A stretch of 64,000 bases of DNA, taken from an uncultured Gemmatimonadaceae bacterium. GTDB lineage: Bacteria; Gemmatimonadota; Gemmatimonadetes; Gemmatimonadales; GWC2-71-9. A program made the translations under genes and the position numbers. Every line of letters begins with the position of its first letter. Positions within the stretch are counted from its first letter, which is position 1. The notes below the pieces were generated by a model. That model was not told where the DNA came from. It saw only the letters and a list, made by a program, of their open reading frames with translations, and ran no database searches. Where the stretch lies: positions 35,206 through 99,205 of the forward strand of contig CAZNOJ010000001.1 of the NCBI GenBank assembly GCA_964574665.1, in the 5' to 3' direction. Positions 47,182 to 62,948 of the stretch are shown here, one piece after another.

Positions 47182-48327
47182 ATGCGTCGCACCCTGATCC
47201 CGATGTCGCTCGCGCTGATTGCCTGCGCGGCCCCGGCGCAGAATCCCGCGCTGCAATCGCCCACGCCGTCGTCCACGCCGGGGGTGGTGCATGCGGTGAC
47301 GGTGGCCCAGGGGCTGGTCAATCCGTGGGGGCTGGCGTTCCTGCCCGACGGCCGGATGCTGGTCACCGAGCGTCCCGGTCGGGTGCGGATCGTGTCGCCC
47401 AACGGCACCCTTTCCGAGCCGCTCACGGGCGTCCCCGCGGTGGCGGCCCGCAGCCAGGGCGGCATGCTCGACGTGGCAATCGACCCCGACTTTGCCAGCA
47501 ACCGCTTCGTCTACCTCACCTTCTCGGAGCCCGGCGAGGTGGAGGGCACCGCCTCGACGGCGGTCGGCCGGGGTCGGCTGACGGACGCTGGGCTCGAGGG
47601 CTTCACCGTGCTCTACCGCCAGAGCCCGAAGGTGCGCTCCGGCGGCCACTACGGCTCGCGCATCGTGTTCGGGCGCGACGGCACCATGTGGGTCACCGCG
47701 GGCGATCGCCAGAACCAGCGGCCGCTGGTGCAGGACCTCTCCACGGGGATCGGCAAGATCGTGCGGATCAACCGGGACGGCAGCATCCCGCGCGATAATC
47801 CGTTCGTGGGGCGCGAGGGCGCGGTGGAGGCGATCTGGTCATACGGCCACCGCAACCTGCAGGGCGCCACGCTGCACCCGGAGACGGGCCGGCTCTGGAC
47901 GGTGGAGCACGGCGCCCGGGGTGGCGATGAACTCAACCACCCGGAGGCCGGCAAGAACTACGGCTGGCCGGTGATCACCTACGGCGTGGACTACAACGGT
48001 TCGCAGATCGGCGAGGGCACCGCCAAGGCGGGCATGGAGCAGCCGGTGTACTACTGGGATCCGGTGATCGCGCCGTCCGGCATGACCTTCTACACCGGGG
48101 ATCGCTATCCGGGTTGGCGGGGGTCGTTGCTGATCGGCTCGATGACACCCGGCGCCCTCGTGCGCCTGGAGCTGACCGGGGACCGGGTCACCAAGGAGGA
48201 GCGCTATCTGGGCGAGTTGCGCCAGCGGTTCCGTGACGTGGTGCAGGGACCCGACGGCTACATCTACTTCGTCACCGACGCCGCCGATGGCCGGGTGATG
48301 CGGGTGATGCCGGGTCCGCAGCCCTGA
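47182..48327 (+). CDS. PQQ-dependent sugar dehydrogenase (soluble aldose dehydrogenase, YliI-like)
   Basis: Track ORF 46816..48327, with the start at ATG 47182. NPWGLAFLPDGRMLVTERPGRVRIV.., GGMLDVAIDPDF.., HYGSRIVFG.DG.., YGHRNLQG.., HGARGGDELN.., GKNYGWP. Confidence 0.9.
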   Translation: MRRTLIPMSLALIACAAPAQNPALQSPTPSSTPGVVHAVTVAQGLVNPWGLAFLPDGRMLVTERPGRVRIVSPNGTLSEPLTGVPAVAARSQGGMLDVAIDPDFASNRFVYLTFSEPGEVEGTASTAVGRGRLTDAGLEGFTVLYRQSPKVRSGGHYGSRIVFGRDGTMWVTAGDRQNQRPLVQDLSTGIGKIVRINRDGSIPRDNPFVGREGAVEAIWSYGHRNLQGATLHPETGRLWTVEHGARGGDELNHPEAGKNYGWPVITYGVDYNGSQIGEGTAKAGMEQPVYYWDPVIAPSGMTFYTGDRYPGWRGSLLIGSMTPGALVRLELTGDRVTKEERYLGELRQRFRDVVQGPDGYIYFVTDAADGRVMRVMPGPQP

Positions 48328-48812
48328 CCATTCATCCGTTCACCGCCCGTGACATCACGGGCCGGGAGCGATCGCTCGGCGAGTTTGCGGGACAGGTCTG
48401 CCTGATCGTCAACGTGGCCAGCGCCTGCGGGTACACCCCGCAGTACGCTGGCCTCGAGCGGTTGTGGCGTCGCCATCGTGACCGGGGCTTCGTGGTCCTC
48501 GGCTTTCCGTGCAACCAGTTCGGCGAACAGGAGTCCGGCGACGAGGCGGCGATCGCGGCCTTCTGCTCCACCACCTATGACGTGACCTTCCCGATGTTCG
48601 CCAAGGTGGAGGTGAACGGTCGCCAGGCCCACCCGCTCTTCCGGCACCTGAAGTCGGCCGCGCCCGGGCTGCTGGGGACGCGTCGCATCAAGTGGAACTT
48701 CACCAAGTTCCTGGTGGGGCGCGACGGCGTGCCGGTCCGGCGATACGGGCCCGACACCGCCCCCGAAGCGATCGAGCCGGCGATCGTGGCGTTGCTCCAG
48801 GCGCCGCGGTAG
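48324..48812 (+). CDS. Glutathione peroxidase (Cys type); start codon unresolved
   Basis: VCLIVNVASACGYTPQY..LGFPCNQFG.QE..WNFTKFLV. The active-site codon is TGC, not TGA. The frame is open from 48237, but there is no ATG/GTG/TTG before GTG 48414, which lies 3 codons before the catalytic Cys. The start is provisionally set at CTG 48324, which overlaps the upstream TGA. Confidence 0.7.
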   Translation: MTIHPFTARDITGRERSLGEFAGQVCLIVNVASACGYTPQYAGLERLWRRHRDRGFVVLGFPCNQFGEQESGDEAAIAAFCSTTYDVTFPMFAKVEVNGRQAHPLFRHLKSAAPGLLGTRRIKWNFTKFLVGRDGVPVRRYGPDTAPEAIEPAIVALLQAPR

Positions 48813-48816
48813 TCCG

Positions 48817-50247
48817 TCAGCGGGTGGGGATCGCCCGGCCGTGGCATGCCATGCACATCTCCGGGTTGCGGCGGCGCATCCGCTCCGCATCGAAGCCCGG
48901 GCCATGCGGCGAGAAGCGCCGTCCGCCGATCGCCGAGTGACAGGCGGTGCAGTCGCGCTCGGCGTGACACGAGACGCAGCTCTCCAGCGACTGCCGCGCC
49001 GCCTGGCCGTGCCCCACGAAGAAGGCGGCCTTGGCGTCGTGGTAGTTGGCGCCGCCGAGGGTGTTGCCGCCACCGAGCCCGGCCTGGCGGTGGCAGGACG
49101 CGCAGAACTGGGTGGTGTTGTGGCAATCGGCGCAGCTCACCTGGCGGCTGTAGGCCGCCGAGGGATGCCGGGTCAGGAAATCGGCGGGGTGGTAGGCATC
49201 GCCTCCGCGGCCACCGGACTCGCGGTGACAGGACAGGCAGTCCTGCCGCACGTGGCAGGTGGCACAGCTGCGCGGCGAGGCGGACGCCTCGCGGGCGTGC
49301 CCCTCGCGGAAGCTGCTGGTATGCGACGCCGGCTCCGCGCGCGTGATGGCTGCGCCCGTGGCTCGCTCGGGCGCGGGGAGCGGGAGCGCAGCCACGGCAG
49401 CAGGCAGCGGGGCGACGTGACAGGCGGTGCAGCTCGGTCGCGCGTGGCAGGTGGCGCACGCCTGCGGCGCCCGGTTGGCGTCGCGACCGTGCCCGGTCAC
49501 GAACGTGGGCCGTGCGTGCGAGGGCGGCGCGGTGAAGGTGAACCGATGGACCAGGGAGCGCTCGTCGGGCGCCAGGGCCTGGATCGCCGGGTTCTCCGGG
49601 GCATCCACGTGGCAGTTCATGCAGAAGTTGCGCGCGTGGCAGGTGGCACAGCTCTGGCTCACCGCCTGCCCGCCGCCGGGACGGGCCGGCAGCGCGCGCT
49701 GGCCGTGCCCCTCGAACCGGAACGAAGGGACCTGGTGCGAGAGGGGAACCGGGAACCGTGCCACGTCGCTCGACGTGAGCCGGCGGGCCTCGGCGAGCGG
49801 GTAGTGGCAGGTGGCGCACTCGAGGTCCCCCACCTCGAGGTGCCCGCGGCCGGGCACGTGGCAGCTCACGCAGTCCACGGCGCGGCTCACGTGCACCGCG
49901 CCGCGTGGATTGTCGGGGGCGTGGCAGCGCACGCAGGCCACGGAGTCGGCCGTGGCGGCGGCATGGGCCTGGTGCACGAACCGCACGTTCGAGACCGGTG
50001 GCGCGGTGGGCGCGGCCCACTCGACGCGTGCCTCGACCTCGCCGTCGTGGCATGCCGCGCAGCTGGCCGGCTCCGGCCAGAACGAGGCGCTGGAGTCCAC
50101 CGGCCCCACGTGGCACGTGGTGCAGGAGCCGGGGAAGAGCGGCGTGTGCGTCTCGTGACGGAAGTCTGCGGCGCCCCGGGCCAGCAGCGCGCCGGTGGTG
50201 CAGAGCACGGCGACCAGCGCGGCGGCGAGCGTGGAGCGGCCGGTCAT
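48817..50247 (-). CDS. Multihaem c-type cytochrome, 16 CXXCH motifs (periplasmic/extracellular)
   Basis: Track ORF 48817..50337, with the start at ATG 50247 (MTGRSTLAAALVAVLCTTGALLA), forming an ATGA overlap with the barrel gene stop. I counted 16 CXXCH by eye, including five tandem modules of the form F-x3-H-x8-10-CxxCH-x4-CxxCH. Confidence 0.9.
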   Translation of the reverse strand: MTGRSTLAAALVAVLCTTGALLARGAADFRHETHTPLFPGSCTTCHVGPVDSSASFWPEPASCAACHDGEVEARVEWAAPTAPPVSNVRFVHQAHAAATADSVACVRCHAPDNPRGAVHVSRAVDCVSCHVPGRGHLEVGDLECATCHYPLAEARRLTSSDVARFPVPLSHQVPSFRFEGHGQRALPARPGGGQAVSQSCATCHARNFCMNCHVDAPENPAIQALAPDERSLVHRFTFTAPPSHARPTFVTGHGRDANRAPQACATCHARPSCTACHVAPLPAAVAALPLPAPERATGAAITRAEPASHTSSFREGHAREASASPRSCATCHVRQDCLSCHRESGGRGGDAYHPADFLTRHPSAAYSRQVSCADCHNTTQFCASCHRQAGLGGGNTLGGANYHDAKAAFFVGHGQAARQSLESCVSCHAERDCTACHSAIGGRRFSPHGPGFDAERMRRRNPEMCMACHGRAIPTR

Positions 50248-51716
50248 GGTGTGGTGCCGGTGCGCGTGGCGCGCGGCAGCGGGGATCGGTCCACGTCGGT
50301 GCCGATGATGCGGGTGATGCGCGCGGTGAATCGCCACTGGTTCCAGTCGATCGCCGCCGCGTCCGGACGGTCACGCTCCTCGGTGACGCGGATGGCGCCC
50401 AGGCCGAGGCGCCAGGAGTCCCCGGCGCGCCACTCGAGGTCGCCGCCGAACAGCGTCAGCGACGCGTCGCTCCAACGGAACTCCAGCGGTCGGCGCAGCG
50501 TGGCGGCCTGGGCCGCGAGGGTGAGCTGCTGGTGCGGGCGCCAGGTGAGGCGACCCTCGTACCCGAGTGACGCGCTGCCGGGGCCGAACTCCGCGTGGTG
50601 ACCCAGGTCCACGGTCAGGTCGGGTCGTGGCTGCCAGGAGCCGCCGGTCTCGACGCGCCAGCCGCGGTCCTCCACGGCGACCAGCCCGGACGCCGCCCCA
50701 CTCTCCTCGAACCGGAAGCGCTCGCCGCGCAGGTGGAACTGCACGGTGCGACGCGGTGCGACGGACACCGCACCGTGCAGCGCGTGGTAGGCCACCGGCG
50801 AGAAGGCGCCCCAGATGGTCCAGAGGTCGAAGAACGGCAGGTAGCGTCGCGCGCCCAGGGAGACGTTGGCCCCGCGACCGATCCAGGTGGCGGTCACGTC
50901 GGCGGAGCCCCATTGGGCCGATGCCAGGTCGTACGCCGCACCGGCCACCAGCGCGACGCGGGCCACGGGACGCAGCGCCAGCGACACCGCCGCGCGCTCC
51001 GAGACGAAGTAGTCCACGGCGGGATCAACCTCGCGCCGATATTCGATGCGGGCATCACCGACGCGATGGCGCACGCCCACTTCGAGGCCCGCCACGAGCT
51101 GGCGGTCGCGGGGCTGAAAGTCGTCGAGCGGATTGAGCGCGGGGGACGTGACGGGGAGGAGCGCTCCGCGCGCCAGTCCCCAGCCACCGTAGCCCACCAC
51201 GTCCACGCGGCCGGCCTGCCAGGCGACCCGCGCGCCGTCGAGGCCATAGGCGCCGAGGCGCGAGGGCAGGAACTGGCGACCTGCCTGGGTCGTGAGGGTG
51301 CCCCGTTGGTACTCGAGGTAGCCCTCCACCAGCTGCAGGTCCGGCTCGGTGCCTGGCCACGCCGCCGCCTCGGCGAGATCGGTGGCGTGGCGCACGTTGA
51401 GCCGGGCACGCAACCCCGGGAGGCCGAATCCCCAGAGCGTGAGGTCGGCCTGGGTCACCAGCGGGGCGCCGCGCACCACACCGCCCGCGCGAAGGAAGTG
51501 GCACCAGCGATCGTCGCAGGTGGCCTGGTGACCTTCGGGGGTGGTCCATCCCCCGCTTCCCGTCGGGACGGCCTGCGTGCGGGGAATGCTGTCGAGCGCG
51601 ACCCCTCGCCAGGACACGCCGTTGAGCCGGGCGTCGAGGCGCAGCCGGTGACCCTGGCCATCGAGGGGCGTGGCGAGGGACAGCGAGAGGCCGAGGAGCA
51701 GGGCGGCCCGCGTCAC
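50244..51716 (-). CDS. Predicted outer-membrane beta-barrel (porin-like) protein of the cytochrome operon
   Basis: Track ORF 50244..51782. GTG 51716 forms a GTGA overlap with the upstream stop. The signal-like N-terminus is AALLLGLSLSLATPLDGQ. There are no TM helices and no CXXCH. Amphipathic strand patterns occur throughout (RVDVVGYGGWGLARG, ARIEYRREV, LTVDLGHHAEFG, LEWRAGDSWRLGLGAIRV). An N-terminal CDDRWCH motif is present. The beta-barrel call is an inference. Confidence 0.6.
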   Translation of the reverse strand: MTRAALLLGLSLSLATPLDGQGHRLRLDARLNGVSWRGVALDSIPRTQAVPTGSGGWTTPEGHQATCDDRWCHFLRAGGVVRGAPLVTQADLTLWGFGLPGLRARLNVRHATDLAEAAAWPGTEPDLQLVEGYLEYQRGTLTTQAGRQFLPSRLGAYGLDGARVAWQAGRVDVVGYGGWGLARGALLPVTSPALNPLDDFQPRDRQLVAGLEVGVRHRVGDARIEYRREVDPAVDYFVSERAAVSLALRPVARVALVAGAAYDLASAQWGSADVTATWIGRGANVSLGARRYLPFFDLWTIWGAFSPVAYHALHGAVSVAPRRTVQFHLRGERFRFEESGAASGLVAVEDRGWRVETGGSWQPRPDLTVDLGHHAEFGPGSASLGYEGRLTWRPHQQLTLAAQAATLRRPLEFRWSDASLTLFGGDLEWRAGDSWRLGLGAIRVTEERDRPDAAAIDWNQWRFTARITRIIGTDVDRSPLPRATRTGTTP

Positions 51717-53674
51717 GTCGGACCGGAGCGGAGCTGGCGGCGCCAGGCCTCGGGCGTGCTCAGCATGTGGCACGTGGTGCACTCGCGCCGCGGGTGGTGG
51801 TCGGTGCGTTGGGCCGCATGGCAGGTGACGCAGAACGAGCGATCGGGCGTCAGCGCCGTCACCGTGATGGCAGCATGGCAGGCGTCACAGCGCCGATGCG
51901 ACGCAGCCGGGTCCCCACGATGCGCCTCGACCAGTTGCGGCGTGGTGTGGCACGCGGCGCAGTCGCGTCGTGCGGCATGGTGGTCGGTGTGGCAGCTGGC
52001 GCATTGCCGCACGTCGGCCGACGGGGTGAGCGACACTGGCGTGGTGTGGCAGGTGGCGCAGCGGACATTCTCGTGGACCGGATGGGCGAAGGCCACGAGG
52101 CGTTCGCGCGGCGGGTGCCGTGCCACGGCCATGGTGACCGGCAGCTCGCGGACCGCCGCGAGTTCGCCGTCCTGGTGGCACGCCGCGCACCGGCTGGTGG
52201 TGGCCGCCTGGTGGTGGCAGATCTGGCAGCCCCGCGGCGCCTCGAAGGTGAGCCGCCCGCCACGCTGCGCCCCGGGGCTCACGTGACAGGTGATGCACGC
52301 GAGGGAGGTGTGCCGACGGTGGCTGAAGGTGTCGGTGGGGCTGGCCGGCTGGGCGTCAGCCGGCCCCACGGACGGGGGGAGGTCCGGCGGGCGGACGTCC
52401 CCCTTTCCCCGCGCCGGTTCCTCGGGCGGTGTCGCGTGTTCGGCGCTGCTCATCCGGAGGGCGCGGGCGGTATCGAACGGCACGGGCGGCAGGCGCCGCG
52501 TCCCGGACGGCGCGCGCTGGCGCACCGCGGCGTGACAGGCGACGCAATCGCTGGGATCCACCTTGGACGCGTGCGGGGCGTGACAGGTGAGGCACTGCTC
52601 GCCCACGCGCCGATGCGCGGTGCCGGTGTGGAAGGGCGTCTCCCGCCAGTTGGCGTGACATCCGGCCGTGGTGCAGCTCTGTCCGGCGGCCTGCGGGGTC
52701 TCCTGCGTGTGGGGATTGTGGCAGGTGCCGCAGGTGCTGTTGTGGGGCTCCAGGGCCTCCACGTAGCCGGTGAGCACCCGCTGCATCTCGTGGCACGCCA
52801 GGCACTGGCTCCGACCCGGCCGCATGGTGCCCACGGCCGAATCCCGGGTGGCGAGCCGCGGCACCTCGGCGGTGAACTGGTGGCACTGGTTGCAGTGCAG
52901 CGCGGTTTGCTCCGCCATCTTGCCGAGCTTGATCTCGACATCCTCGTGGCATCCCGAGGTGCCGCAGGTGCGGGATGCGGGGATGAACGCGTGCACCTCC
53001 GCCCCATGACAGGTGACGCACTGCACCTCGGCCAGGGCGCTGGAGTCCGACTCCATGTGCGTGCGATGCCCCGCGGTCTCCGCGACACGGGTCCAGAGCT
53101 CGTCTTCCTGCGTGTTGTGGCACGACTCGCAGCGGGCGTTGGGGACCGGCGAGTGGGCCGGGATCTCCTCCGGCTTGTTGGCGACCCAGAGGAAGAGTTC
53201 CCGCGTGCTGGCCATGATCGACTGCTGGTGGCAGTCGTGGCACTGGAGCACGCTGTGCTTGCCGGCGTCGCTGGCGAACTTGTTCCAGGGGCCTTCCATG
53301 ACATGGCACGACGAGCAGAAGTCGTTGTCGTGCTGCATGTAGTTCCACGACGCGGTGCCGGCGAGGCCGAAGGCCAGGAGCACCGCGGCGAGCCCCCCGA
53401 CGAGCAGCATGCGGGTGCCGGCGGCGCGCGAGGCGAACCAGGTGCGGATGGCCAGCCGGTGGCGCCAGGCCGTCCAGGCCAGCCACGCCGCCCCCGCCAT
53501 CACCAGCAGCAGGCCGGCCACCCAGGCCCAGGTGGGCGCGTTGAAGACCGCGGCGAACAGCGCGGCGACCTTGTCGGGCACCGGGGGCTGAACCGTCGGA
53601 AGCCCCCGCACGAACCGGTCGAAGGTCGTGTCGGGGGTTTCCCCTTGCATCCACAGGATCGTCACGAGGAGCAC
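51713..53674 (-). CDS. Membrane-anchored multihaem cytochrome: NapC/NirT/NrfH-like N-terminus fused to a long multihaem domain (18 CXXCH + 2 CX4CH)
   Basis: There are two hydrophobic helices (WAWVAGLLLVMAGAAWLAWTAW and MLLVGGLAAVLLAFGLAG), followed directly by NYMQHDNDFCSSCHVM as in NapC/NrfH. I counted 18 CXXCH plus CGTSGCH and CTTAGCH by eye. GTG start at 53674. Confidence 0.85.
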   Translation of the reverse strand: MLLVTILWMQGETPDTTFDRFVRGLPTVQPPVPDKVAALFAAVFNAPTWAWVAGLLLVMAGAAWLAWTAWRHRLAIRTWFASRAAGTRMLLVGGLAAVLLAFGLAGTASWNYMQHDNDFCSSCHVMEGPWNKFASDAGKHSVLQCHDCHQQSIMASTRELFLWVANKPEEIPAHSPVPNARCESCHNTQEDELWTRVAETAGHRTHMESDSSALAEVQCVTCHGAEVHAFIPASRTCGTSGCHEDVEIKLGKMAEQTALHCNQCHQFTAEVPRLATRDSAVGTMRPGRSQCLACHEMQRVLTGYVEALEPHNSTCGTCHNPHTQETPQAAGQSCTTAGCHANWRETPFHTGTAHRRVGEQCLTCHAPHASKVDPSDCVACHAAVRQRAPSGTRRLPPVPFDTARALRMSSAEHATPPEEPARGKGDVRPPDLPPSVGPADAQPASPTDTFSHRRHTSLACITCHVSPGAQRGGRLTFEAPRGCQICHHQAATTSRCAACHQDGELAAVRELPVTMAVARHPPRERLVAFAHPVHENVRCATCHTTPVSLTPSADVRQCASCHTDHHAARRDCAACHTTPQLVEAHRGDPAASHRRCDACHAAITVTALTPDRSFCVTCHAAQRTDHHPRRECTTCHMLSTPEAWRRQLRSGPT

Positions 53675-53702
53675 GGGCGGATCCTGGCGGGAGCGGTGGG
53701 CC

Positions 53703-55274
53703 TCAGCGAGGCAGCGATCCCAGGTGCGGCGTCATCCGGGTGTCTCCCCGCAGGCGGTAGCGGGCGGCGTCGAGGGCCGATTGCACCAGCGCCTGTTCGC
53801 GCAACCCCAGCACGCCGACGGACGGATAGGTGGCTTGCAGCTCGGTGATGTTGGCGGCCAGCAGGCCCTTGACCAGGAACGGGTTGTGCACGCCCAGCGA
53901 CTTGTCGCCGTTGCTGTAGCGTCCCTCGCCGAAGAGCTTGACGTTGAACTCGGCGCCGTCCGCCGGGGTGACCACGGCGTCGGAGGGGTTGAGCGCGCCG
54001 GGCACGTCGCGCTTGATCTCGGGGAGGAGGCCGGCATCGGTCGGTGCCGCGTCCACGCTGCGATCGTTGTCGAGGTCGCGCCAGAGGATGTCGGCGAACA
54101 CCGCCACCTGCTGGCGCAGTGACGCGAGCGCATTGGAGGCCACCGCGGCCGACGAGTGACACCCCGACGCCGTGCACCCCACGAAGGACCTGGCGGTGCT
54201 GGTGTACTCGCAGCCGGAGTTGCCCGTGGGCACCCCCTGCGCATCCACGCAGGGCAACGCCCCGAAGGTGTGCCCCACCGCCTGGAAGACGAAGCCGCCC
54301 TGCGGGTCGTTGACCGTGAACTTGTTCACGTGGCATCCGGCGCAGAGCCGCGGGTTGGCGCTCGAACCATGCGTGGAGACCAGTTCCGCCTCGGGCGCCG
54401 AGAAGCCGGCCGGCCGGTAGCCGCCGATGCCCACCACCACGGCGCCCTGGGGTCCGTGGGGCGAGTTGCCCTGGGTGCTGCCGCCGGCCGGCTCGACGCG
54501 ACGGAGGTGGCACTGCATGCAGAGGTTCCGTTCCGGATCGGACGTGGAGGCCGAGAGCCGGAGCTGGGCGGTATTGCGGCTGGCGTGCGGGTCGTGACAC
54601 ACCGTGCAGGTGACCGGCCAGGGATCGGTGTCGGCCTTGTCGCGGAACACCGGGTCCTGCCCCGAGAGGCGGAGGAGCGCGGTCTTCCCCTCGTGGCACG
54701 ACATGCAGGTGGCGTTGGTGGTGGGCGACCCGGTGCGCACGTTGGCGTGGCGCGACAGGTTCCACTGTTCCACGAACGGGTGGTGCGTGCCGGTGTGGCA
54801 GGAGGCGCAGCTCGACTCGGGATCGTCGATGCTGGCGTTGGCCAGCGGCACGTTGGCGGCCACCTCCGGGTTGCGCACGTGCTCCAGCCCGGGGCCGTGG
54901 CACGACTCGCATTGCACGTCGGCGTAGACGGGGTCCTGGGTGGCCTCGAACCCGGCGACACCCGTGGCGATGTTGCCGCGTGCGTTGACCGAGTGGCAGT
55001 TCTTGCAGGAGGCGCCCGCGGTGCTCGGAAGCACGGCCATCGCGTCGGCGTGCGCGGTGCCGATCCAGTCGGACTGGTGGCCCACGTGGCAATTGCCGCA
55101 GGTGGTCTTCTTGCCCGTGGCGGTGTAGTAGCCGAGGAACCCCGCCGCAGCCGGGAGCGGTTCGTTGAACGGCTCGCGATCGCGGTAGACGATGGTCTCG
55201 GTGGTGCAGGAGGCCAGCACCGCCGCCAGGGGCAGGGCCAGCAGGAGGGTGCGCAACGACGGCGAGGATGACAT
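53703..55274 (-). CDS. Multihaem c-type cytochrome lipoprotein (8 CXXCH + 1 CX4CH)
   Basis: Track ORF 53703..55367, with the start at ATG 55274 (MSSSPSLRTLLLALPLAAVLASC lipobox). Motifs: CGNCH, CKNCH, CESCH, CASCH, CMSCH, CTVCH, CMQCH, CAGCH and CTASGCH. Confidence 0.85.
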   Translation of the reverse strand: MSSSPSLRTLLLALPLAAVLASCTTETIVYRDREPFNEPLPAAAGFLGYYTATGKKTTCGNCHVGHQSDWIGTAHADAMAVLPSTAGASCKNCHSVNARGNIATGVAGFEATQDPVYADVQCESCHGPGLEHVRNPEVAANVPLANASIDDPESSCASCHTGTHHPFVEQWNLSRHANVRTGSPTTNATCMSCHEGKTALLRLSGQDPVFRDKADTDPWPVTCTVCHDPHASRNTAQLRLSASTSDPERNLCMQCHLRRVEPAGGSTQGNSPHGPQGAVVVGIGGYRPAGFSAPEAELVSTHGSSANPRLCAGCHVNKFTVNDPQGGFVFQAVGHTFGALPCVDAQGVPTGNSGCEYTSTARSFVGCTASGCHSSAAVASNALASLRQQVAVFADILWRDLDNDRSVDAAPTDAGLLPEIKRDVPGALNPSDAVVTPADGAEFNVKLFGEGRYSNGDKSLGVHNPFLVKGLLAANITELQATYPSVGVLGLREQALVQSALDAARYRLRGDTRMTPHLGSLPR

Positions 55275-55389
55275 TGTCAGTCCCTGACCGCTGAACGTGG
55301 ACGTGCGCCACGACCGGAGACCACGGGTCCGTGCCTTGACGTTACCGCGTCCCCCGGGGTGCCGCAACGGGAGGAAATTGGTCGGAAAA

Positions 55390-55404
55390 CCGGGCGCAGC
55401 CCGG
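55390..55404 (-). promoter_or_regulatory. Terminator-like hairpin with a T-tract in the leader region of the cytochrome operon
   Basis: On the minus strand it reads CCGGGC-tgc-GCCCGG followed by TTTTCC. It lies 116-130 nt upstream of ATG 55274. Confidence 0.3.
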
Positions 55405-55462
55405 GGTTCTGGCTACCTTTGTCGTGTCGCCACGGACTCCCCAACCGAACCCGGAAGCCCCG

Positions 55463-56200
55463 ATGACCAACGCCTCCCCCGGTGCCCCGTGTCCTTCGTG
55501 CGGTGCCGTGTCCGCCGGCAACTTCTGCAGCGGGTGCGGGGCGCCCCGCGCCAGCCGCACCTGCCCGTCGTGCCGCGGCGCGGTGGCGCCCGGGGCCAGG
55601 TTCTGCAGTCATTGCGGCACGGCCGTGGCCGCGGGGCCGGCGCGCCAGGTGCAGTGGGCGTGGGTGGTGGCGGGCCTCGCCGTGCTGGCCGTGGTGCTGG
55701 TGCTGGTCTGGCGCTCCGCACCCCCGACGCCGGCTGCGCCGGGCGGGACCACGGGCGATCCTGCCGCGATCGACCTCGCCTCGATGACGCCGCGGGAGCG
55801 CTTCGATCGGCTCTACGATCGGGTGATGCGCGCCGCCGAGCAGGGTGACGCGGCCACCGTGGGACAGTTCGCGCCGATGGCCCTCGCGGCCTACGAGCAG
55901 CTCGACGCGCGCGATGCCGATGCGCGCTATCACGCCGCGATGATCCGGATGCACACCGATGATCCGGCCGGCGCGGCCGCGCTCGCGGACACGATCCGGG
56001 CCGAGGCGCCGTCGCACCTCTTCTCGTTCGTGATCCACGCCACGCTGGCGCGCCAGCGCAACGACCCTGCGCGCCAGCGCGAGGAAGAGGCCGGATTCCT
56101 GGCCGCCTACGACGCGGAGATCGCCGCCGGACGCGAGGAGTACCAGCAACACCGGTTCATCCTCGACCAGATGCTCGAGCAGGCGCGCCGGACGCCCTGA
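55463..56200 (+). CDS. Double zinc-ribbon membrane protein with a TPR-like C-terminal domain
   Basis: Track ORF 55424..56200, with ATG 55463 preceded by ggaag. CPSCG..FCSGCG and CPSCRG..FCSHCG zinc ribbons, then a TM helix WAWVVAGLAVLAVVLVLVW. Confidence 0.7.
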   Translation: MTNASPGAPCPSCGAVSAGNFCSGCGAPRASRTCPSCRGAVAPGARFCSHCGTAVAAGPARQVQWAWVVAGLAVLAVVLVLVWRSAPPTPAAPGGTTGDPAAIDLASMTPRERFDRLYDRVMRAAEQGDAATVGQFAPMALAAYEQLDARDADARYHAAMIRMHTDDPAGAAALADTIRAEAPSHLFSFVIHATLARQRNDPARQREEEAGFLAAYDAEIAAGREEYQQHRFILDQMLEQARRTP

Positions 56201-56217
56201 CGGCGCCCGACGCGCGA

Positions 56218-56242
56218 CCCCGGCGGCACCCGCCGCCCGGGG
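56218..56242. terminator. GC-rich hairpin between convergent genes (CCCCGGCGG..CCGCC(C)GGGG)
   Basis: It has a 9-bp stem with one bulge and a 6-nt loop. It lies between the zinc-ribbon stop (56200) and the Hsp20 stop (56245). There is no U-tract. Confidence 0.3.
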
Positions 56243-56244
56243 CA

Positions 56245-56691
56245 CTACTTCACCTCGATCCTGGCGGAGCCGGCCGGGGTCGCCTTGGGCAGGGTCACCA
56301 CCAGCACCCCGTTCTCGAGGGTGGCGGTGACGCCCTTTGCATCCACCGGGGTCGGCATCCGCAGCGTCCGGAGGAACCGACCCTCCTCGCGCTCCTGCCA
56401 CATGAAGCGTTCGTCCTTCCCCTCCGTGGCGTGCTTCCGCTCGCCACGCAGGGTGAGCAGGTCACCCTCGAGCTTGACGTCGATCTGGTTTCGGGCGACT
56501 CCCGGGGCCTCGAGCCGGACCGTGTACTGCTTGTCGGTCTCCGAGAAATCGACATTGGGTGAGAGGAATCCGTCGGGGCTCCGCATGGTGAGCGCGGCGG
56601 GGTAGAGGAACCGGTCGAGGATCCGCTCGAAGTCATCGCGGAAGGTGCCGACGCGGGGAACGGGTGCGGGTACCACGTTGGGGACTGGCAT
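56245..56691 (-). CDS. Hsp20 / alpha-crystallin family small heat-shock protein
   Basis: Track ORF 56245..56961, with the start at ATG 56691. PNVDFSETDKQYTVRLEAPGV....IDVKLEGDLLTLRGERK...F.R.LRMP..VDAKGVTATLENGVLVVTLPK. Confidence 0.9.
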   Translation of the reverse strand: MPVPNVVPAPVPRVGTFRDDFERILDRFLYPAALTMRSPDGFLSPNVDFSETDKQYTVRLEAPGVARNQIDVKLEGDLLTLRGERKHATEGKDERFMWQEREEGRFLRTLRMPTPVDAKGVTATLENGVLVVTLPKATPAGSARIEVK

Positions 56692-56804
56692 GGCGGTGCT
56701 CCGGTCTCGGGTGACGACTCGGCGGGGGACCCGATCGCCTGCAACCTCGCACCTGCCGGATGAAGGGGAGATGAATTCGCCGCGAACGCGGCTTGGGAGC
56801 GCGC

Positions 56805-57494
56805 TCAGCCGGTGGCCCCGTCCTCCGGATCGCGCAGGGTGAATCCCACCCCCCGGACGGTCTCGAGGGCCGGCCGGGGACCGACCGCCGCCAACTTGCG
56901 CCGCAGGTTGCCCAGGTGGACGTCCACCACGTTGCTCTCCGGGTCGAACTGCATGTCCCACACCTTCTCCAGCAGGGTGGTGCGGTGGACCACCTCGCCG
57001 GCGTGCAGCATGAGGAACTCCAGGAGCTGGAATTCCTTGGGCGTCAGGTCGAGCCGGGTGCCCTGCAGGCTGGCCCGGTGCGCCGCACGGTCGAGGGTCA
57101 GGGGGCCGTAGCGCAGCTCCTCCAGGCGGCCCGAGCCGCCCCGGCGGGTCAGCGCCCGCAGCCGGGCCAGGAGTTCCTCGAAGTGGAACGGCTTGGCGAG
57201 GTAGTCATCCGCGCCGGCGTCGAGCCCGCGCACCACGTCCTCCGTCGCGTCGCGCGAGGTGAGCATCAGGATCGGCGTGGTGCGCCCCTCGCGCCGCAGC
57301 TCGGCGGCCACCTGGAAGCCGTTCTTCCTGGGCAGCATGACGTCGAGCAGGATGGCGTCATACTCGTTGACGTGCGCGAGCATCCCGGCCTCCTCGCCGT
57401 CGGGCGCCACGTCCACGGCGTGGCCCTCCTCCTCCAGTCCCTGCCGGATGAAGGCCGCCACTTTCCGCTCGTCTTCGACCACCAGGATCCGCAC
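56805..57494 (-). CDS. OmpR/PhoB-family response regulator
   Basis: Track ORF 56805..57695. GTG 57494 is preceded by gagagg. RILVVEDERKV..ILLDVMLPRKNG..YLAKPF plus the winged helix LTPKEFQLLEFLM..VDVHLGNLRRKL..TVRGVGFTL. Confidence 0.9.
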   Translation of the reverse strand: MRILVVEDERKVAAFIRQGLEEEGHAVDVAPDGEEAGMLAHVNEYDAILLDVMLPRKNGFQVAAELRREGRTTPILMLTSRDATEDVVRGLDAGADDYLAKPFHFEELLARLRALTRRGGSGRLEELRYGPLTLDRAAHRASLQGTRLDLTPKEFQLLEFLMLHAGEVVHRTTLLEKVWDMQFDPESNVVDVHLGNLRRKLAAVGPRPALETVRGVGFTLRDPEDGATG

Positions 57495-57552
57495 GACGCA
57501 CCTCTCGTTCGTGGACGTGCCGCCGGCGCGGTCGGGCGCCGCGCAGGCCGGC

Positions 57553-58812
57553 TCAGGTTCGCGTGACCGGCAACACCAGTTCGAACAGCCCGCCGCCCTC
57601 GCGCGGGATGGCCCGGAGGTCGCCACCGAGCAGCCGCGCGAGTCGCCGCGACAGCGGCAGGCCGAGGCCGATGCCCTGCTTGTCCACGTCGGCACCCGTG
57701 ACGTAGATGTCGAAGATCCGCTCGGCCTGCTCGGGACGGATCCCCGGCCCCTCGTCCGCCACGCTCCAGCGCACCCAATGATGGGTCGCGGTCGTGGTGA
57801 TGCGAATCTCGCTGCCCTCGACGGTGTACTTGATCGCGTTGCCGAGCAAGTTCACCAGGATCTGTTCCACCCGATTGGCGTCGGTCTCGATCACCGGAAG
57901 GGAGGGATCGGCGGCCTGGGTCAACCGGATCGCCCGCGCCTCAGCCGCCGGTGTCACGCGCCCCACGGCGCGCCCCGCCAGCCCTCCCGCATCGACCGCC
58001 TGGATGACCGGCCGCAGTCGGTCGGCGTCGAGCCGGCTCAGGTCGAGCAGGTCGCTGATCAGGGCCACGGCCTGCTCCGCGGACGCGAGCACCTCGAACG
58101 CCGCAGGCGGCAGTTCGCCCGGCTTCTTCTTGCGCACCAGCAGCTCGGACCAGCCCAGCACCGCCGCGAGGGCGTTGCGGAGCTCGTGGTTGACCATCGC
58201 GAAGAACCGTTCGCGGTTGCGCTGCAGCTGGTGCACTTCGGTCAGGTGGCGGTTGCTCTCCTCGTGCAGCGAGGCGTTCTCGACCGCTGCGGCCGTCATG
58301 GCCGCGAGCAGCACGGCGAGGTGCTCGTCCTCGGCGGAGAACCCGGCAGCGCCGAGCTTCTCGGTGGCATAGAGGTTCCCGATGGTGCCCCGCCGGCCGG
58401 CGATGGGCACGCCGAGGAACGAGCGCATCGCGGGATGGTTGGCGGGAAACCCGACTGCATCAGGGTGGCGTGCGATGTCCGCGATGCGCACCGGGCGTCC
58501 CTCGCGAAGCACCGTGCCGAGGACTCCCCTGCCCAGCGGCGGGTGGTCGATCCGTTCGCGATCCGCGCTGGCCAGGCCATGGGTCACGAAGCGCTCGAGC
58601 GTCCGGCCATCGGCCGACAGCACGCCGATCGCGGCATAGCGCGCCCCCAGCACCTCGGCGGCCACGGCCACCACGCGGGCGAGCACCCCGTCGAGGCTCG
58701 CCTCGGAAGTGAGGGCGAGGCCGGCCAGCACCAGCTGCTCCAGGCGCCAGTCGATCCCCGGGGTCGCGGCATCGCCGTCGCGGGTCGAGGGGGGACCTGA
58801 AGAAAGGTTCAT
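57553..58812 (-). CDS. GAF-domain sensor histidine kinase
   Basis: GAF: LGARYAAIGVL..FLGVPI..G.IGNLY. H-box: FFAMVNHELRNALAAVLGWSELL. ATPase: NLLGNAIKYT, DEGPGI, GIGLGLPLS. The start is either ATG 58812 or GTG 58827. Confidence 0.85.
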   Translation of the reverse strand: MNLSSGPPSTRDGDAATPGIDWRLEQLVLAGLALTSEASLDGVLARVVAVAAEVLGARYAAIGVLSADGRTLERFVTHGLASADRERIDHPPLGRGVLGTVLREGRPVRIADIARHPDAVGFPANHPAMRSFLGVPIAGRRGTIGNLYATEKLGAAGFSAEDEHLAVLLAAMTAAAVENASLHEESNRHLTEVHQLQRNRERFFAMVNHELRNALAAVLGWSELLVRKKKPGELPPAAFEVLASAEQAVALISDLLDLSRLDADRLRPVIQAVDAGGLAGRAVGRVTPAAEARAIRLTQAADPSLPVIETDANRVEQILVNLLGNAIKYTVEGSEIRITTTATHHWVRWSVADEGPGIRPEQAERIFDIYVTGADVDKQGIGLGLPLSRRLARLLGGDLRAIPREGGGLFELVLPVTRT

Positions 58813-58925
58813 CCTGGCACCACGCACCCTTGCAGGGCGGGTGACGATGTTGGCAGCAGCACGGCAAGGGCGCGGACGGCGACGATGGGGGTCAGATGTC
58901 TTCCTGCGACGATCCGGGTGATGCG

Positions 58926-59589: not shown

Positions 59590-59657
59590 GCGGGATGTGC
59601 GACGTTGCGGAAGAGGGCAAGAGGACAGGACGGTTCACCCAGAACGCGGGAGGTGAT

Positions 59658-60911
59658 GTGTCGACGAACATGATGCGGGGCGGCCTGGGAGTGGTCGCGC
59701 TGGGCCTGGTGCTCGGGGCGACGCCGGTGCTGTCCCAGACTCCGACCGCCCCGGTGCCGGTGCCTGGGGCGTACGACGGGGGATACCTGATCTTCCGGAG
59801 CGCCGATGGCCGCTTCGAGTACTGGCTCGACGGCCGGCTCAACCTCGACGGCGCCGTATACTGGGGTGGCGACAACGACCTCGGCAACGGCACCACGATC
59901 CGGCGCGCGCGGCTCGGCGTCAAGTCGCAGCTCTACCGCGACTGGTACGCGGAGATCGACGTGGACTTCGCCAACAACGAGCTGGAGATCAAGGACGCGT
60001 GGGCGGGGTACACCGGCTTCGGCAACACGCTCCTCAAGGTCGGGCAGTACAAGGAGCCGTTCTCGCTGGAGACGGTCACCTCCTCGAAGAACATCCTCTT
60101 CATGGAGCGCTCCTATGCCGACAACTTCTCGCCCGACCGGAATCTCGGCGTGGGGGCGGTGCGGTGGGGCAGGCACTGGCGCGTGGCGGTCGGTGCCTTC
60201 GGCCAGGACGGCGGCGCCGTGGATGAGACGGCGCGCGACGAGGGGTTCGGCCTCACTGGGCGCGTGACGATCGCCCCGGTGATCAAGGACCGCCAGGTGA
60301 TCCACTTCGGGGTCGGGCTCAGCCGCCGGACGCCGGAGGCCGCCGAGGGGAGCGACACCAATTCGGTGCGCTTCCGGGCGCGGCCGGAGACCGACGTCTC
60401 GCAGGCGCGATTCGTCAACACCGGCCGGATCCGGTTTGTCGATCACACCAGCCTGTACAACGCCGAAGCGGCGGTGATGCTCGGGTCGCTGCACCTGCAG
60501 GGCGAGTACACCGGCGTGGCGGTGCGTCGGCTCGAGGACCGGGCGACGGCGCACTTCAGCGGTGGGTACGTGTCGGCCAGCTACTTCCTCACCGGAGACA
60601 GCCGGAAGTACCTGGTGGAGGACGGCGAATTCGACCGGGTGCTGCCGACCCGTCCGGGCGGCGCCTGGGAACTGGGGGTGCGCTACAGCACCATCAACCT
60701 CAACGACGACGACCCCGAAGTGGACATCCTGGGTGGCAAGGCCACCAATTACACGGTGGGCCTCACCTGGCACATCAACGCGAACCTGAAGTGGATGATC
60801 AACTTCGTGCGGGTGGAGACCGACGAGAACTCGGAGCCCGACCTGGGGGAGAACACCGTCCCGGGCGACAAGTTCAACTTCATCGCCACCAGGGTGGCCC
60901 TGGCATTCTAG
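59658..60911 (+). CDS. Phosphate-selective porin O/P family (OprO/OprP-like)
   Basis: Track ORF 59595..60911, with the start at GTG 59658 after gggagg (or ATG 59670). F.YWLDGRLNLDGAVY.., IRRARLGVK...DWYAEIDVDFANNELEIKDAWAGY.., LKVGQYKEPFSLE...S.K...FMERS, and C-terminal NLKWMINFVRVE. Confidence 0.85.
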   Translation: MSTNMMRGGLGVVALGLVLGATPVLSQTPTAPVPVPGAYDGGYLIFRSADGRFEYWLDGRLNLDGAVYWGGDNDLGNGTTIRRARLGVKSQLYRDWYAEIDVDFANNELEIKDAWAGYTGFGNTLLKVGQYKEPFSLETVTSSKNILFMERSYADNFSPDRNLGVGAVRWGRHWRVAVGAFGQDGGAVDETARDEGFGLTGRVTIAPVIKDRQVIHFGVGLSRRTPEAAEGSDTNSVRFRARPETDVSQARFVNTGRIRFVDHTSLYNAEAAVMLGSLHLQGEYTGVAVRRLEDRATAHFSGGYVSASYFLTGDSRKYLVEDGEFDRVLPTRPGGAWELGVRYSTINLNDDDPEVDILGGKATNYTVGLTWHINANLKWMINFVRVETDENSEPDLGENTVPGDKFNFIATRVALAF

Positions 60912-60915
60912 GGGC

Positions 60916-61395
60916 GTGATGCCGACCGAGATCGAGCGGAAGTACCTGATCATCCCGGGTGCCTGGCACCCGGACCCGGCGCGGGGGACGCATTATCGGC
61001 AGGGGTACCTGTCGAGCGACCCCGCCCGGGTGGTTCGCGTCCGGGTGGCCGGCGACGCCGCGTGGCTCACCATCAAGGGGCTCACCGAGGGGATCTCGCG
61101 GCTGGAGTTCGAGTACCCGATCCCGGTGGCCGATGCCAACCTGTTGCTCGACCGGCTGGCAGTGGGCAGCGTGGTGGCAAAGCGCCGCTATCGCGAGACG
61201 TTTGCGGGTCGGGTGTGGGAAATCGACGTCTTCGAGGGCGACAACGCCGGGTTGGTCCTGGCCGAGGTCGAGCTTCCCGACGCGGATGCCGCCGTGGAGC
61301 TGCCGCCGTGGGTCGCGCGCGAGGTGTCCGACGATCCGCGCTACTTCAATTCCAACCTGGCGGTGCATCCGTGGCGGGAGTGGGGACGGCCGTGA
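60916..61395 (+). CDS. CYTH-domain protein (CyaB/ThTPase-type triphosphate tunnel metalloenzyme)
   Basis: The N-terminal EIERKYLI (ExExK) motif, plus VRVRVAGDAAWLTIKG, KRRY..F.G.VWEIDVFEG.NAGLVLAEVELP. Confidence 0.85.
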   Translation: MMPTEIERKYLIIPGAWHPDPARGTHYRQGYLSSDPARVVRVRVAGDAAWLTIKGLTEGISRLEFEYPIPVADANLLLDRLAVGSVVAKRRYRETFAGRVWEIDVFEGDNAGLVLAEVELPDADAAVELPPWVAREVSDDPRYFNSNLAVHPWREWGRP

Positions 61396-62948
61396 GTGCG
61401 GCGCCGGCACCGCAGGGCGACCGGTTCGCCGAAATGCTGGCGCTCGACCGGCTCACCCTCTCGCCGGCGGCCCGGCCGGTCACCGGCACGGCCGATCGCT
61501 GGATGCGGCGACTGGGGTTGCCCGTGGGCCTGGTGGTGTTCGCCTGGCTCACGCTGATGCCCCGCCCGGAGGGGCTCGACGCCGCGGGGCAGGCGGCGAT
61601 CGCCGCGTTCGCCCTGGCACTGGTCTGGTGGGTGACCGAGCCGTGGCCGTCGTACGTGACGTCGCTGATCCTGATGGTGGTGCTGGTGGTGACCCGCGCC
61701 GACGACGCCGACCGGGTGATGGGTGTCCTCGGGATGGACGTGATCTGGCTCAACGTGATGGCGTTCATCCTGAGCGCGATGCTGGTGGCGACCCGGCTCG
61801 CCAAGCGGCTCGCGCTCCTCCTCATCGAGCGATTCGGCCACACGGTCTCGTGGGCCCTCGGCTCGTTCGTGGTGCTGCAGCTCGTCCTGGCGCCGCTCAT
61901 CCCGGCCACCGCCGCCCGGACGGTGCTCACCCTCCCGCTGATGGTGGCGGTGGCGGCGATCTATGGCGCCACGGCGGAGCGCAACACCAACGTCGGCCGC
62001 AACCTCTTCCTGCTCAACCTCACCGCCATCAGCATCCTGTCGTCCACGGTGATGACCGGCAGCGCCGCCAACCTTGTCGCGGTCGGCTTCATCCAGGAGC
62101 TGGGCGGCCACAAGGTGTACTACTCCGACTGGCTGCTGGCCTCCGCGCCCATCGCGGTGCTGACCGTGCTCTGCGCGTGGTTCCTCGGGCCGCGGCTGAT
62201 CTTCCGCGTGCCGCGAGCCGAACGGACGCCGACCTTTCCGGGCGGCTTCGAGGCGGTGCGGGCGGAGCGCGAGAAGCTCGGGCCGATCACCCCGGTGCAG
62301 TGGCGCGCGATGGCGATCTTCGGCCTGGTGATCTTCCTCTGGGCCACCGACCGCTTCCAGCAGGGGTGGTTCGGCTTCGAGCTGGGCGCGCCGATCGCGG
62401 CGATGATCGGGGCCGTTCTTGCGCTGCTGCCCCGCGTGGGGGTCATCACCTGGGGCGACACGGAGATCCCCTGGCACCTGATGGTGTTCAGCGCAGGGGC
62501 GTACGCCGGCGGGCTCGCGCTCGAGCACACCGGGGCGGGGGAGTGGGCCGTGAATGCCCTGTTCGGCGGGATGCATCTGGAACGGCTGGCGTTCGGCTGG
62601 ACCTACGCGATCGTGGTGGCGGTGATGCTCTACAGCCACCTGCTGTCGACCTCCAAGACGATCCGCACCGTGCTCATGGTGCCGGCCATCATCCTCCTGG
62701 CTCGGAGCCTCGGCTGGGACCCGGTGTCGCTGGCGCTGCCGGCGGCCTTCACCATCGACTGGGTGATCGGGCTGCCGATCAGCGGCAAGCCCAACGTCAT
62801 CCTGTTCGGCACCAACCAGTACTCGGTGCGGGACAACCTCCGCTACGGGCTGCTGGTGTGCACCGCCGGGTACCTCCTGATGCTGCTGGCGGGCGCCACG
62901 TACTTCCACTGGCTCGGGATCACCCCCGCGTTCGGCGCGCTGCCCTAG
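61392..62948 (+). CDS. DASS/SLC13-type (anion permease superfamily) transporter
   Basis: Track ORF 61062..62948. GTG 61392 forms a GTGA overlap with the CYTH stop (ATG 61434 is an alternative). There are about 12 or more TM segments. Typical motifs are TEPWPSYVTSLI, PATAART and GSAANLV. Confidence 0.75.
   Translation: MSAAPAPQGDRFAEMLALDRLTLSPAARPVTGTADRWMRRLGLPVGLVVFAWLTLMPRPEGLDAAGQAAIAAFALALVWWVTEPWPSYVTSLILMVVLVVTRADDADRVMGVLGMDVIWLNVMAFILSAMLVATRLAKRLALLLIERFGHTVSWALGSFVVLQLVLAPLIPATAARTVLTLPLMVAVAAIYGATAERNTNVGRNLFLLNLTAISILSSTVMTGSAANLVAVGFIQELGGHKVYYSDWLLASAPIAVLTVLCAWFLGPRLIFRVPRAERTPTFPGGFEAVRAEREKLGPITPVQWRAMAIFGLVIFLWATDRFQQGWFGFELGAPIAAMIGAVLALLPRVGVITWGDTEIPWHLMVFSAGAYAGGLALEHTGAGEWAVNALFGGMHLERLAFGWTYAIVVAVMLYSHLLSTSKTIRTVLMVPAIILLARSLGWDPVSLALPAAFTIDWVIGLPISGKPNVILFGTNQYSVRDNLRYGLLVCTAGYLLMLLAGATYFHWLGITPAFGALP

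Follow-up and report, generated by a model that had tools for sequence, protein, structure and literature searches.

Models of extracellular electron transfer all share a weak point, the crossing of the ~20-nm periplasm. In Shewanella and Geobacter it is believed to depend on small diffusing cytochromes, since CymA or ImcH at the inner membrane and the complexes of the outer membrane do not reach far enough to meet (PMC5971433). Can the crossing instead be built into the quinol dehydrogenase itself? The question is raised by a gene, here called gene B, on a stretch of 64,000 nucleotides of DNA from an uncultured Gemmatimonadaceae bacterium (GenBank assembly GCA_964574665.1, contig CAZNOJ010000001.1, positions 35,206 to 99,205), which we refer to as the window and from whose first letter all positions below are counted. 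A preliminary description, made from the letters of the window alone, had read the 653-residue product of gene B as a NapC/NrfH-like quinol-dehydrogenase module fused to an extension of roughly 16 haems. We find that B is the second of four co-directional genes, in the order A-B-C-D, and our reading, to which we would give a probability of about 60%, is that it forms the inner-membrane, quinol-coupled end of a conserved four-gene conduit of the porin-cytochrome type in Gemmatimonadota.

Gene B and the parts of its product to which we refer, with transmembrane (TM) helices and the AlphaFold2 (AF2) confidence measure pLDDT (predicted local distance difference test) where used, are as follows.

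51713–53674, minus strand: gene B, a 20-haem inner-membrane cytochrome of 653 aa, with a GTG start and a TGA stop at 51715–51713
53534–53674, minus strand: N-tail, residues 1–47, predicted to lie on the periplasmic side
53465–53533, minus strand: TM helix 1 (TM1), residues ~48–70, from hydropathy (AF2 helix 48–71, pLDDT >90)
53414–53464, minus strand: Arg-rich loop, residues 71–87 (RHRLAIRTWFASRAAGT), predicted cytoplasmic from its charge
53351–53413, minus strand: TM helix 2 (TM2), residues ~88–108, from hydropathy; aligns with the NrfH TM helix
52991–53350, minus strand: NrfH/NapC-like tetrahaem module, residues 109–228, with haem sites C120, C145, C182 and C219
52523–52990, minus strand: seven-haem extension, residues 229–384, with both CX4CH sites (237 and 334); weakly DmsE/MtrA-like
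52334–52522, minus strand: Pro/Ala-rich linker, residues 385–447, its variable part between R407 and D448
51716–52333, minus strand: nine-haem C-terminal half (C-half), residues 448–653, of c7/c3-type repeats, GSU1996-like

The frame opens 28 nt past the stop of the preceding gene, A, and an AGGA ends 7 nt 5' of the GTG. Counting motifs in the product, we obtain 18 CXXCH and two CX4CH, which bears out the 20 haem sites originally noted in a single chain; the strings WNYMQHDNDFCSSCHVMEGPW, CHDCH, CESCH and CVTCH, as well as the Pro/Ala-rich stretch, were likewise all found in B. The first Cys of each CXXCH lies at residues 120, 145, 182, 219, 261, 291, 315, 361 and 377 in the N-terminal half (N-half) and at 460, 483, 496, 539, 558, 572, 596, 615 and 632 in the C-half, while the CX4CH sites are CGTSGCH at 237 and CTTAGCH at 334. 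B contains exactly 40 Cys, each one inside a haem motif. The layout is thus one of 11 haems (four NrfH-like and seven further), then the linker, then nine haems, and GC content at third codon positions (GC3) stays at 0.75–1.00 in this frame over the whole open reading frame, linker included.

Searching 5.8 billion proteins for homologues of B, we recovered more than 120 full-length relatives of 600–720 aa and 50–99% identity, which, where named, are proteins from metagenome-assembled genomes (MAGs) of Gemmatimonadota or Gemmatimonadales. Conservation counts below are from an alignment of 118 homologues, with identities down to ~50%; counts out of 28 are from a smaller, diverse alignment used for comparison with family profiles. 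Each of the 20 haem motifs is an invariant column among the 118 homologues despite that spread of identity, and the motifs are therefore not due to chance. The exact pattern of 18 plus two is present in 111/118, and in one relative a CXXCH replaces the CX4CH at 334. Outside the motifs there are ~22 invariant or near-invariant His, a number that would suffice to ligate almost every haem of B in bis-His fashion. Databases label these homologues 'hypothetical' or 'cytochrome c3 family', and several close ones are named 'nitrate/TMAO reductase-like tetraheme cytochrome c subunit' by the Joint Genome Institute (JGI). A scan of GTDB, with one genome per species, gave at least 272 stretches encoding a B relative. 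The best 80 of these were examined; all are from Gemmatimonadota and all from MAGs, and they match over essentially the whole of B wherever the contig permits.

The proposed kinship with NapC, NirT and NrfH, for which the spacing of the first haem motifs had been the argument, proves significant at the level of family profiles. TIGR03153, the NCBIfam model of NrfH, aligns residues 91–225 of B with its positions 2–135 of 138 at E=4.5e-8, and is matched by 28/28 homologues at E≤1e-3 (best 2.7e-10). When a profile of the module itself, built from residues 85–235 of 20 family members, was searched against the PDB, the sole significant match was NrfH of Desulfovibrio vulgaris (2j7a_C, E=8.7e-6), the aligned region beginning at the TM helix, taking in FCxxCHxM and haem 2 and ending at haem 3. 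A family profile is needed to see this: a single-sequence phmmer search of the PDB with B gave only weak c3-type matches and 28pb_A (E=1e-3). Just N-terminal to haem 1 in B lies a membrane helix (TM2 at 88–108, Cys at 120), the counterpart of the single anchor helix of NrfH. Haem 1 itself is CSSCHVM at C120, and Met126 of this CXXCHXM is kept in 118/118 homologues; in NrfH the Met of CXXCHXM is an axial ligand at the quinol-site haem in place of the motif His (bioRxiv 10.1101/2023.05.03.539133). At the position of NrfH Asp89 (residue 159 of B) there is Gln in 108/118 and Glu in 10/118, with an adjacent Arg in 116/118. The Pfam family PF03264 was matched at E≤0.01 by 8/28 of the close homologues, and of ten distant, shorter single-TM relatives, drawn from a library of 1.8 billion representatives and tested against it, at least seven pass its cut-off of 24.1 bits. 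B is accordingly best described, by its sequence, as a divergent representative within the NapC/NirT/NrfH superfamily, the link being transitive and at profile level.

Hydrophobicity at the level of TM helices is found in only two segments of B (~48–70 and ~88–108), and the hairpin that they form is confidently modelled by AF2. In front of it the N-tail carries the motif PPxPGGVAxVLRxxFNxPxW, in which P47 is invariant and P31, P33, N45 and W49 are each conserved to at least 90%. Averaged over the 118 homologues, the net charge of the 17-residue loop between the helices is +4.7; that of the N-tail is +0.3, and behind TM2 it is −0.6. Under the positive-inside rule this would place the loop in the cytoplasm and everything after TM2 in the periplasm, where the preliminary description had set the haem chain; a periplasmic position of the haems also fits the need of their covalent attachment. 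A 294-aa relative (P0184) has the conserved N-tail and TM1 joined straight to a nine-haem C-half, without the NrfH module; it is either a membrane-anchored variant of the C-half or a deletion or assembly artefact.

What follows the tetrahaem module is of two kinds, divided by the linker. The seven-haem extension bears a weak likeness to the DmsE/MtrA decahaem family (TIGR03508 on residues 180–373, E=9.4e-7, with matches in 25/28 homologues), and the counterpart, in alignment, of its CX4CH at 237 is the haem site CGSSGCH in tetrahaem cytochrome c3. For the C-half, a profile searched against the PDB matched GSU1996, an elongated dodecahaem cytochrome of c7-type domains (3ov0_A, E=3.7e-10), the 16-haem HmcA (1z1n, E=1.6e-8), the nine-haem cytochrome (1duw, E=1.5e-5) and several chains of PpcA-type c7 cytochromes (E ~3e-4), from which it follows that the domains of the distal half are of the type found in Geobacter's soluble periplasmic carriers. 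Between R407 and D448 the linker measures 24–74 residues (median 38) in the 118 homologues, with 23.5% Pro and 14% Ala; it holds the conserved islands PPxPFDTxRALR and RGKGDxxPP, and its pLDDT in AF2 is below 50. Together with a genome in which the two halves are separate genes, described below, the variable length, the Pro content and the low AF2 confidence support the flexible hinge between two multihaem halves that had been suggested. Five of the 118 homologues carry an additional CXXCH within the linker, a 21st haem site in the tether itself, and in two relatives (P0036 and P0053) long insertions in the Pro-rich linker bear extra CXXCH.

The genes that accompany B are the following.

53703–55274, minus strand: gene A, a 523-aa lipoprotein with eight CXXCH and one CX4CH, its signal peptide ending in the lipobox LASC
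50244–51716, minus strand: gene C, a 490-aa haem-free outer-membrane beta-barrel of ~24 strands by AF2 and Foldseek, with a GTG start
48817–50247, minus strand: gene D, a secreted cytochrome of 476 aa that has a signal peptide and 16 CXXCH, with an ATG start

Of the 80 loci, 79 have C after B, 76 have D after C and 72 have A ahead of B; the order never varies, and the gaps that we inspected all fall where contigs end. The start and stop codons of successive genes overlap in GTGA between B and C (51713–51716) and in ATGA between C and D (50244–50247), and these four-base overlaps suggest translational coupling of the cytochromes and the barrel. The cluster has features of a porin-cytochrome cluster: a large barrel adjoining multihaem genes, a secreted 16-haem cytochrome in D and a lipoprotein cytochrome in A. 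The AF2 model of C, made with 72 homologues, comprises a signal helix and ~24 beta-strands (pLDDT 83.8; predicted template modelling score, pTM, 0.75), and Foldseek matches it in the PDB to outer-membrane barrels throughout, the top TM-scores being to the 24-strand FimD usher pores and MtrB standing at rank 13. As modelled, C is a wide barrel, of a size able to accommodate a protein. One C homologue bears a generic PF13505 domain. The CX4CH-like CDDRWCH in C was considered as a haem site and rejected, for its two Cys are invariant in the 72 homologues and its His is not; it is probably a disulphide-bonded loop. In D five of the CXXCH occur as paired CXXCH-X4-CXXCH units, and the protein matches a GSU1996 fragment (3ouq_A, E=2e-5). 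The PDB matches of A are weak, the best being OcwA of Thermincola (6i5b_A, E=3.1e-5) and MtrA (6r2q_A, E=3.3e-5), followed by an octahaem nitrite reductase (8rv0_Y, E=0.0074), and A matches the octahaem tetrathionate-reductase family at E=0.0016. We also considered A as modelled on ExtKL/MccSep, the selenoprotein of sulfur respiration in Geobacter; this was rejected, the match reaching only E=0.0012 and A having no active site ligated by selenocysteine or Cys. A scan of 48300–56300 for promoter and terminator consensus sequences found none.

Whether the two halves of B exist as separate genes elsewhere had been raised at the outset, and they do. In one genome (L085, GCA_024641735.1) the order is A, a 461-aa N-half, C and D. 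This N-half has the N-tail, the two TM helices and 11 haem sites, and ends inside the Pro-rich linker; ~3.4 kb downstream a separate C-half gene encodes 241 aa with their own signal peptide and nine CXXCH, and aligns with residues 447–653 of B. On two metagenome contigs (L081 and L082) a secreted C-half of 245 aa stands alone in the place of B, flanked by a gene resembling A on one side and by genes resembling C and D, at 40–44% identity, on the other. Stand-alone N-half-like genes also occur elsewhere, complete, with a single TM helix and 11–12 haems in 303–320 aa. This pattern indicates that it is the C-half that travels with the A, C and D genes, the NrfH-like half being a membrane module fused onto it. 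One of the stand-alone genes, encoding 303 aa with a single TM helix and 12 haems, is complete on a contig of 46% GC (L084, 5365–16912) with an HTH_10 regulator nearby; it adjoins the gene of a 341-aa cytochrome, and downstream lie a molybdopterin oxidoreductase, an Fe-S subunit and Ni_hydr_CYTB, which may represent a different respiratory use of the N-half type of module. A distant fused homologue of full length (P0133, 647 aa, 40% identity; L088, 374–3431) is immediately preceded by a gene for a bc-type cytochrome b (PF00033), which may be a sign that, outside the main family, quinone coupling takes place in another context. The contigs of this and two further distant full-length relatives (P0141 and P0167) are too short for an informative gene context.

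Taking these results together, we propose that the two-helix hairpin would anchor B in the inner membrane with all its haems in the periplasm, and that haem 1, with its CXXCHXM and with Gln or Glu at the position of NrfH Asp89, would lie at the membrane surface and exchange electrons with (mena)quinol. The seven further haems would carry the chain away from the membrane, and the Pro-rich tether would link to it the nine-haem c7/GSU1996-like module, which would act as the periplasmic partner or adaptor of C, D and A at the outer membrane. There, the 16-haem D would likely be threaded into or docked on barrel C, and the nine-haem lipoprotein A would be the likely terminal redox protein. The fusion would hard-wire, or at least tether, the quinol dehydrogenase to the outer-membrane complex, and freely diffusing periplasmic cytochromes would not be needed. 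Quinol oxidation, contact of the C-half with C, D or A, the direction of flow (of which we favour the outward) and an extracellular acceptor are what we infer here from the sequences.

Elongated multihaem proteins such as MtrA and GSU1996 contribute ~8–10 Å of chain per haem. At this rate B, with 20 haems, and D, with 16, could together cover ~235 Å. Such is the width of the periplasm in Shewanella, into which MtrAB protrudes by ~50 Å and where CymA, too, measures ~50 Å, hence the soluble shuttles invoked there (PMC5971433). Both the operon context and the likeness of the C-half to c7/GSU1996 lend plausibility to the idea, first proposed from the haem count, that B might itself span much of the periplasm and replace shuttles of that sort. 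We would tentatively go one step further, although here we are more inclined to doubt than to believe: the linker may be a leash rather than a rigid joint, and the nine-haem half a tethered shuttle that swings between the 11-haem half and the outer-membrane complex. A single operon with 45 haem sites (9+20+16) would then lead electrons out of the quinone pool and up to the cell surface with no free carrier, and the fused, split and C-half-only forms would record, at different points of evolution, how a soluble shuttle came to be hard-wired.

Several results count against placing B at the quinol-coupled end of a conduit. Within the module, the Asp89 of NrfH is replaced by Gln or Glu throughout the B family, and the Lys82 of NrfH sits in an NrfH-specific insertion that cannot be aligned with B. 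PF03264 gives no match to the gene B protein at E<0.1, and on TIGR03153 B scores 33.3 bits, as compared with an equivalog cut-off of 134.2. No nrfA-type partner adjoins B, none of its neighbours A, C and D being an NrfA in comparisons with Pfam, NCBIfam and the PDB; with scores under the curated cut-offs, an unalignable Lys82 and no such partner, we rejected B as an NrfH orthologue. The AF2 model of the whole of B, made with 118 sequences, is poor (pLDDT 62.5, pTM 0.39) and confident in the TM hairpin only, so that neither a haem-chain geometry nor a wire length can be derived from it; Foldseek found no meaningful match with this model. The sequence of barrel C resembles neither MtrB nor OmbB nor any family of Pfam or NCBIfam, and the structural matches of the barrel are generic large barrels. 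Finally, the 80 loci, being MAGs only, identify no cultured host, and we know of no demonstration of extracellular electron transfer (respiration of minerals or electrodes) in Gemmatimonadota.

The flow might instead run in reverse: electrons would be drawn from Fe(II), Mn(II) or reduced humics outside the cell, or from a partner cell, and B would serve as a quinone reductase, delivering them to the quinone pool. The architecture is direction-neutral, and such a role has already been proposed for the CymA homologue of Sideroxydans; CymA and CbcL/MtoC have homologues in Fe(II) oxidisers as well as in Fe(III) reducers (Zhong and Shi, PMC6295460), and in iron oxidisers the PCC3/PCC4 clusters likewise bring a set of components that spans the envelope together in a single cluster (PMC5566968). 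Nearby in the 64-kb window, however, there is no marker of carbon fixation or Fe oxidation, and the haems of B, with ~22 non-motif His for 20 haems, would be almost all bis-His. Bis-His haems are usually of low potential and suited to a flow from menaquinol outward, while the reduction of quinone by Fe(II) is energetically difficult at neutral pH, and on balance we consider uptake through B unlikely. We are equally sceptical of a reading in which B, like NrfH, would anchor a periplasmic multihaem enzyme to the membrane and supply it with electrons. A would then be the catalytic protein, in the manner of OcwA, NrfA or an octahaem reductase; its substrate would be soluble, for instance nitrite, hydroxylamine, sulfite or tetrathionate, and the barrel would serve the passage of that substrate rather than of electrons. 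NrfH-type proteins do usually serve a dedicated reductase (bioRxiv 10.1101/2023.05.03.539133), and the weak similarity of A to OcwA, to the octahaem nitrite reductase and to the octahaem tetrathionate-reductase family points the same way. Yet a motif scan of A found no CXXCK site, its scores on the enzyme families lie far under their cut-offs, and it is a lipoprotein, as are MtrC and OmcB; furthermore, 45 haem sites, including proteins of 16 and 20 haems, far exceed what a reductase of soluble substrates needs, and a haem-free barrel coupled between two cytochromes and kept in 79/80 loci is the signature of a porin-cytochrome system.

All three of these readings take B to be one protein, and it might instead be the product of a frameshift or an assembly join of two adjoining cytochrome genes at the Pro-rich stretch. 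High-GC, low-complexity linkers are prone to error, and in a few genomes the halves of B are indeed separate genes. Against this stand more than 118 independent full-length homologues of 600–720 aa from different samples, matching loci in at least 80 species genomes of Gemmatimonadota, GC3 that continues in one frame, and conserved islands within the linker itself; we regard the artefact as refuted by the homologues, the species-genome loci and GC3, and give it next to no credence. We retain the conduit, with B as its quinol-coupled end, as the preferred explanation of this locus.

The genes around the cluster are less constant. One neighbour recurs:

55424–56200, plus strand: a 258-aa double-zinc-ribbon (PF12773) membrane protein, divergent from A

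Its homologue stands beside the cluster in 18/80 loci and, in the genome with the split halves (L085, 7412–7933), directly upstream of the stand-alone C-half gene; the protein may be an accessory or maturation factor, the link to the cluster being weak. Conservation with the cluster does not extend to the other flanking genes, which include those for Hsp20, a histidine kinase with a GAF domain and its response regulator, a glutathione peroxidase, a pyrroloquinoline quinone (PQQ)-type dehydrogenase and a phosphate porin. Of these, the Hsp20 gene, the kinase and the response regulator, which is of the OmpR type, lie at 56245–58827 on the minus strand, directly upstream of the cluster region; among the 80 loci an hsp gene is near the cluster in 14, a kinase in nine and a regulator in three, and with so few occurrences in other genomes they are probably not its dedicated regulators. 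At 59595–62948 on the plus strand the gene of a phosphate-selective porin O/P precedes that of a Na+/sulfate-type (DASS) symporter, which has an N-terminal extension of ~200 residues; both are unrelated to B.

In full-text searches of the literature we found no account of a Gemmatimonadota A-B-C-D cluster or of an NrfH-type protein with ~20 haems, and the literature on ghost-rock, peat and PCC3/PCC4 clusters describes other cluster types. The kind of protein is known, a quinol dehydrogenase of the NapC/NirT/NrfH type in a porin-cytochrome conduit; what we did not find described is a module of this type that bears 16 extra haems. The B family offers a natural and testable alternative to diffusing carriers, with a quinol dehydrogenase and a PpcA/GSU1996-like module in one polypeptide, and the split and C-half-only forms in the same gene cluster are natural controls for the question of how the periplasm is crossed. 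If the cluster is functional, it would change the view of the ecology and redox role of Gemmatimonadota, and, if the linker does act as a leash, it would point to a so far unrecognised capacity of these bacteria for extracellular respiration.

How, then, does B compare with the systems already described? NrfH of D. vulgaris (2j7a/2vr0), NapC, NirT and CymA share with B a TM helix followed directly by a haem 1 of the form CXXCHXM, and periplasmic haems; as in B, four CXXCH lie within ~110 residues, and the profile similarity extends over the whole NrfH length. What sets B apart from NrfH is that this core is preceded by another TM helix and a conserved N-tail, and followed by 16 haems and a linker; unlike the NrfH and NapC systems, B also has no partner gene of the nrfA, napA or torA type. 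Closer in its general plan is ImcH of Geobacter sulfurreducens (GSU3259), an inner-membrane seven-haem quinol oxidase of extracellular electron transfer, a role that we propose for B as well, which we set beside B on its published description: both have a NapC/NirT/NrfH-like module with extra TM helices before it and extra haems after it. Haem 1 of ImcH is predicted to be coordinated by His and Gln, and homologues with one or two TM helices exist (bioRxiv 10.1101/2023.05.03.539133); the Gln at the Asp89 position in most of the B family may recall this predicted ligation. The homologues of ImcH have 5–10 haems (PMC6295460; bioRxiv 10.1101/2023.05.03.539133), compared with 20 in B, and those of CymA four or five (PMC6295460). 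Furthermore, ImcH passes its electrons to soluble PpcA, whereas B has a PpcA/c7-like nine-haem module covalently attached.

The CbcL/MtoC/MtrH family, in which a b-type membrane domain of several helices is joined to 3–23 c-haems and which is used in extracellular electron transfer (PMC6295460), resembles B in being quinone-coupled at the inner membrane and rich in c-haems; unlike its members, however, B has two TM helices only and, by Pfam and hydropathy, no six-helix b-cytochrome domain of the HydC/FdnI type. With MtrCAB (6r2q), with OmaB-OmbB-OmcB and Ext of Geobacter and with PCC3/PCC4, the cluster of B has in common a large barrel gene adjoining periplasmic and lipoprotein multihaem cytochromes, and MtrA/DmsE find a weak likeness in protein A and in the middle of B. 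It differs from these porin-cytochrome conduits in that barrel C has no detectable relation by sequence to MtrB, PioB, MtoB or OmbB, and in its haem numbers of 9, 20 and 16. PCC3 and PCC4, like the cluster of B, encode an inner-membrane redox component in the same cluster, which there is a five-TM dihaem-b-like protein (PMC5566968). Where those clusters have that protein, and where other systems have a separate tetrahaem CymA, B has an NrfH-type c-cytochrome fused to a long haem chain. The end of that chain is made of the same c7-type building blocks as GSU1996 (3ov0) and the trihaem PpcA; unlike these, the nine-haem module of B is tethered to a membrane quinol dehydrogenase, and only in minority variants (L082 and L085) is it free and secreted.

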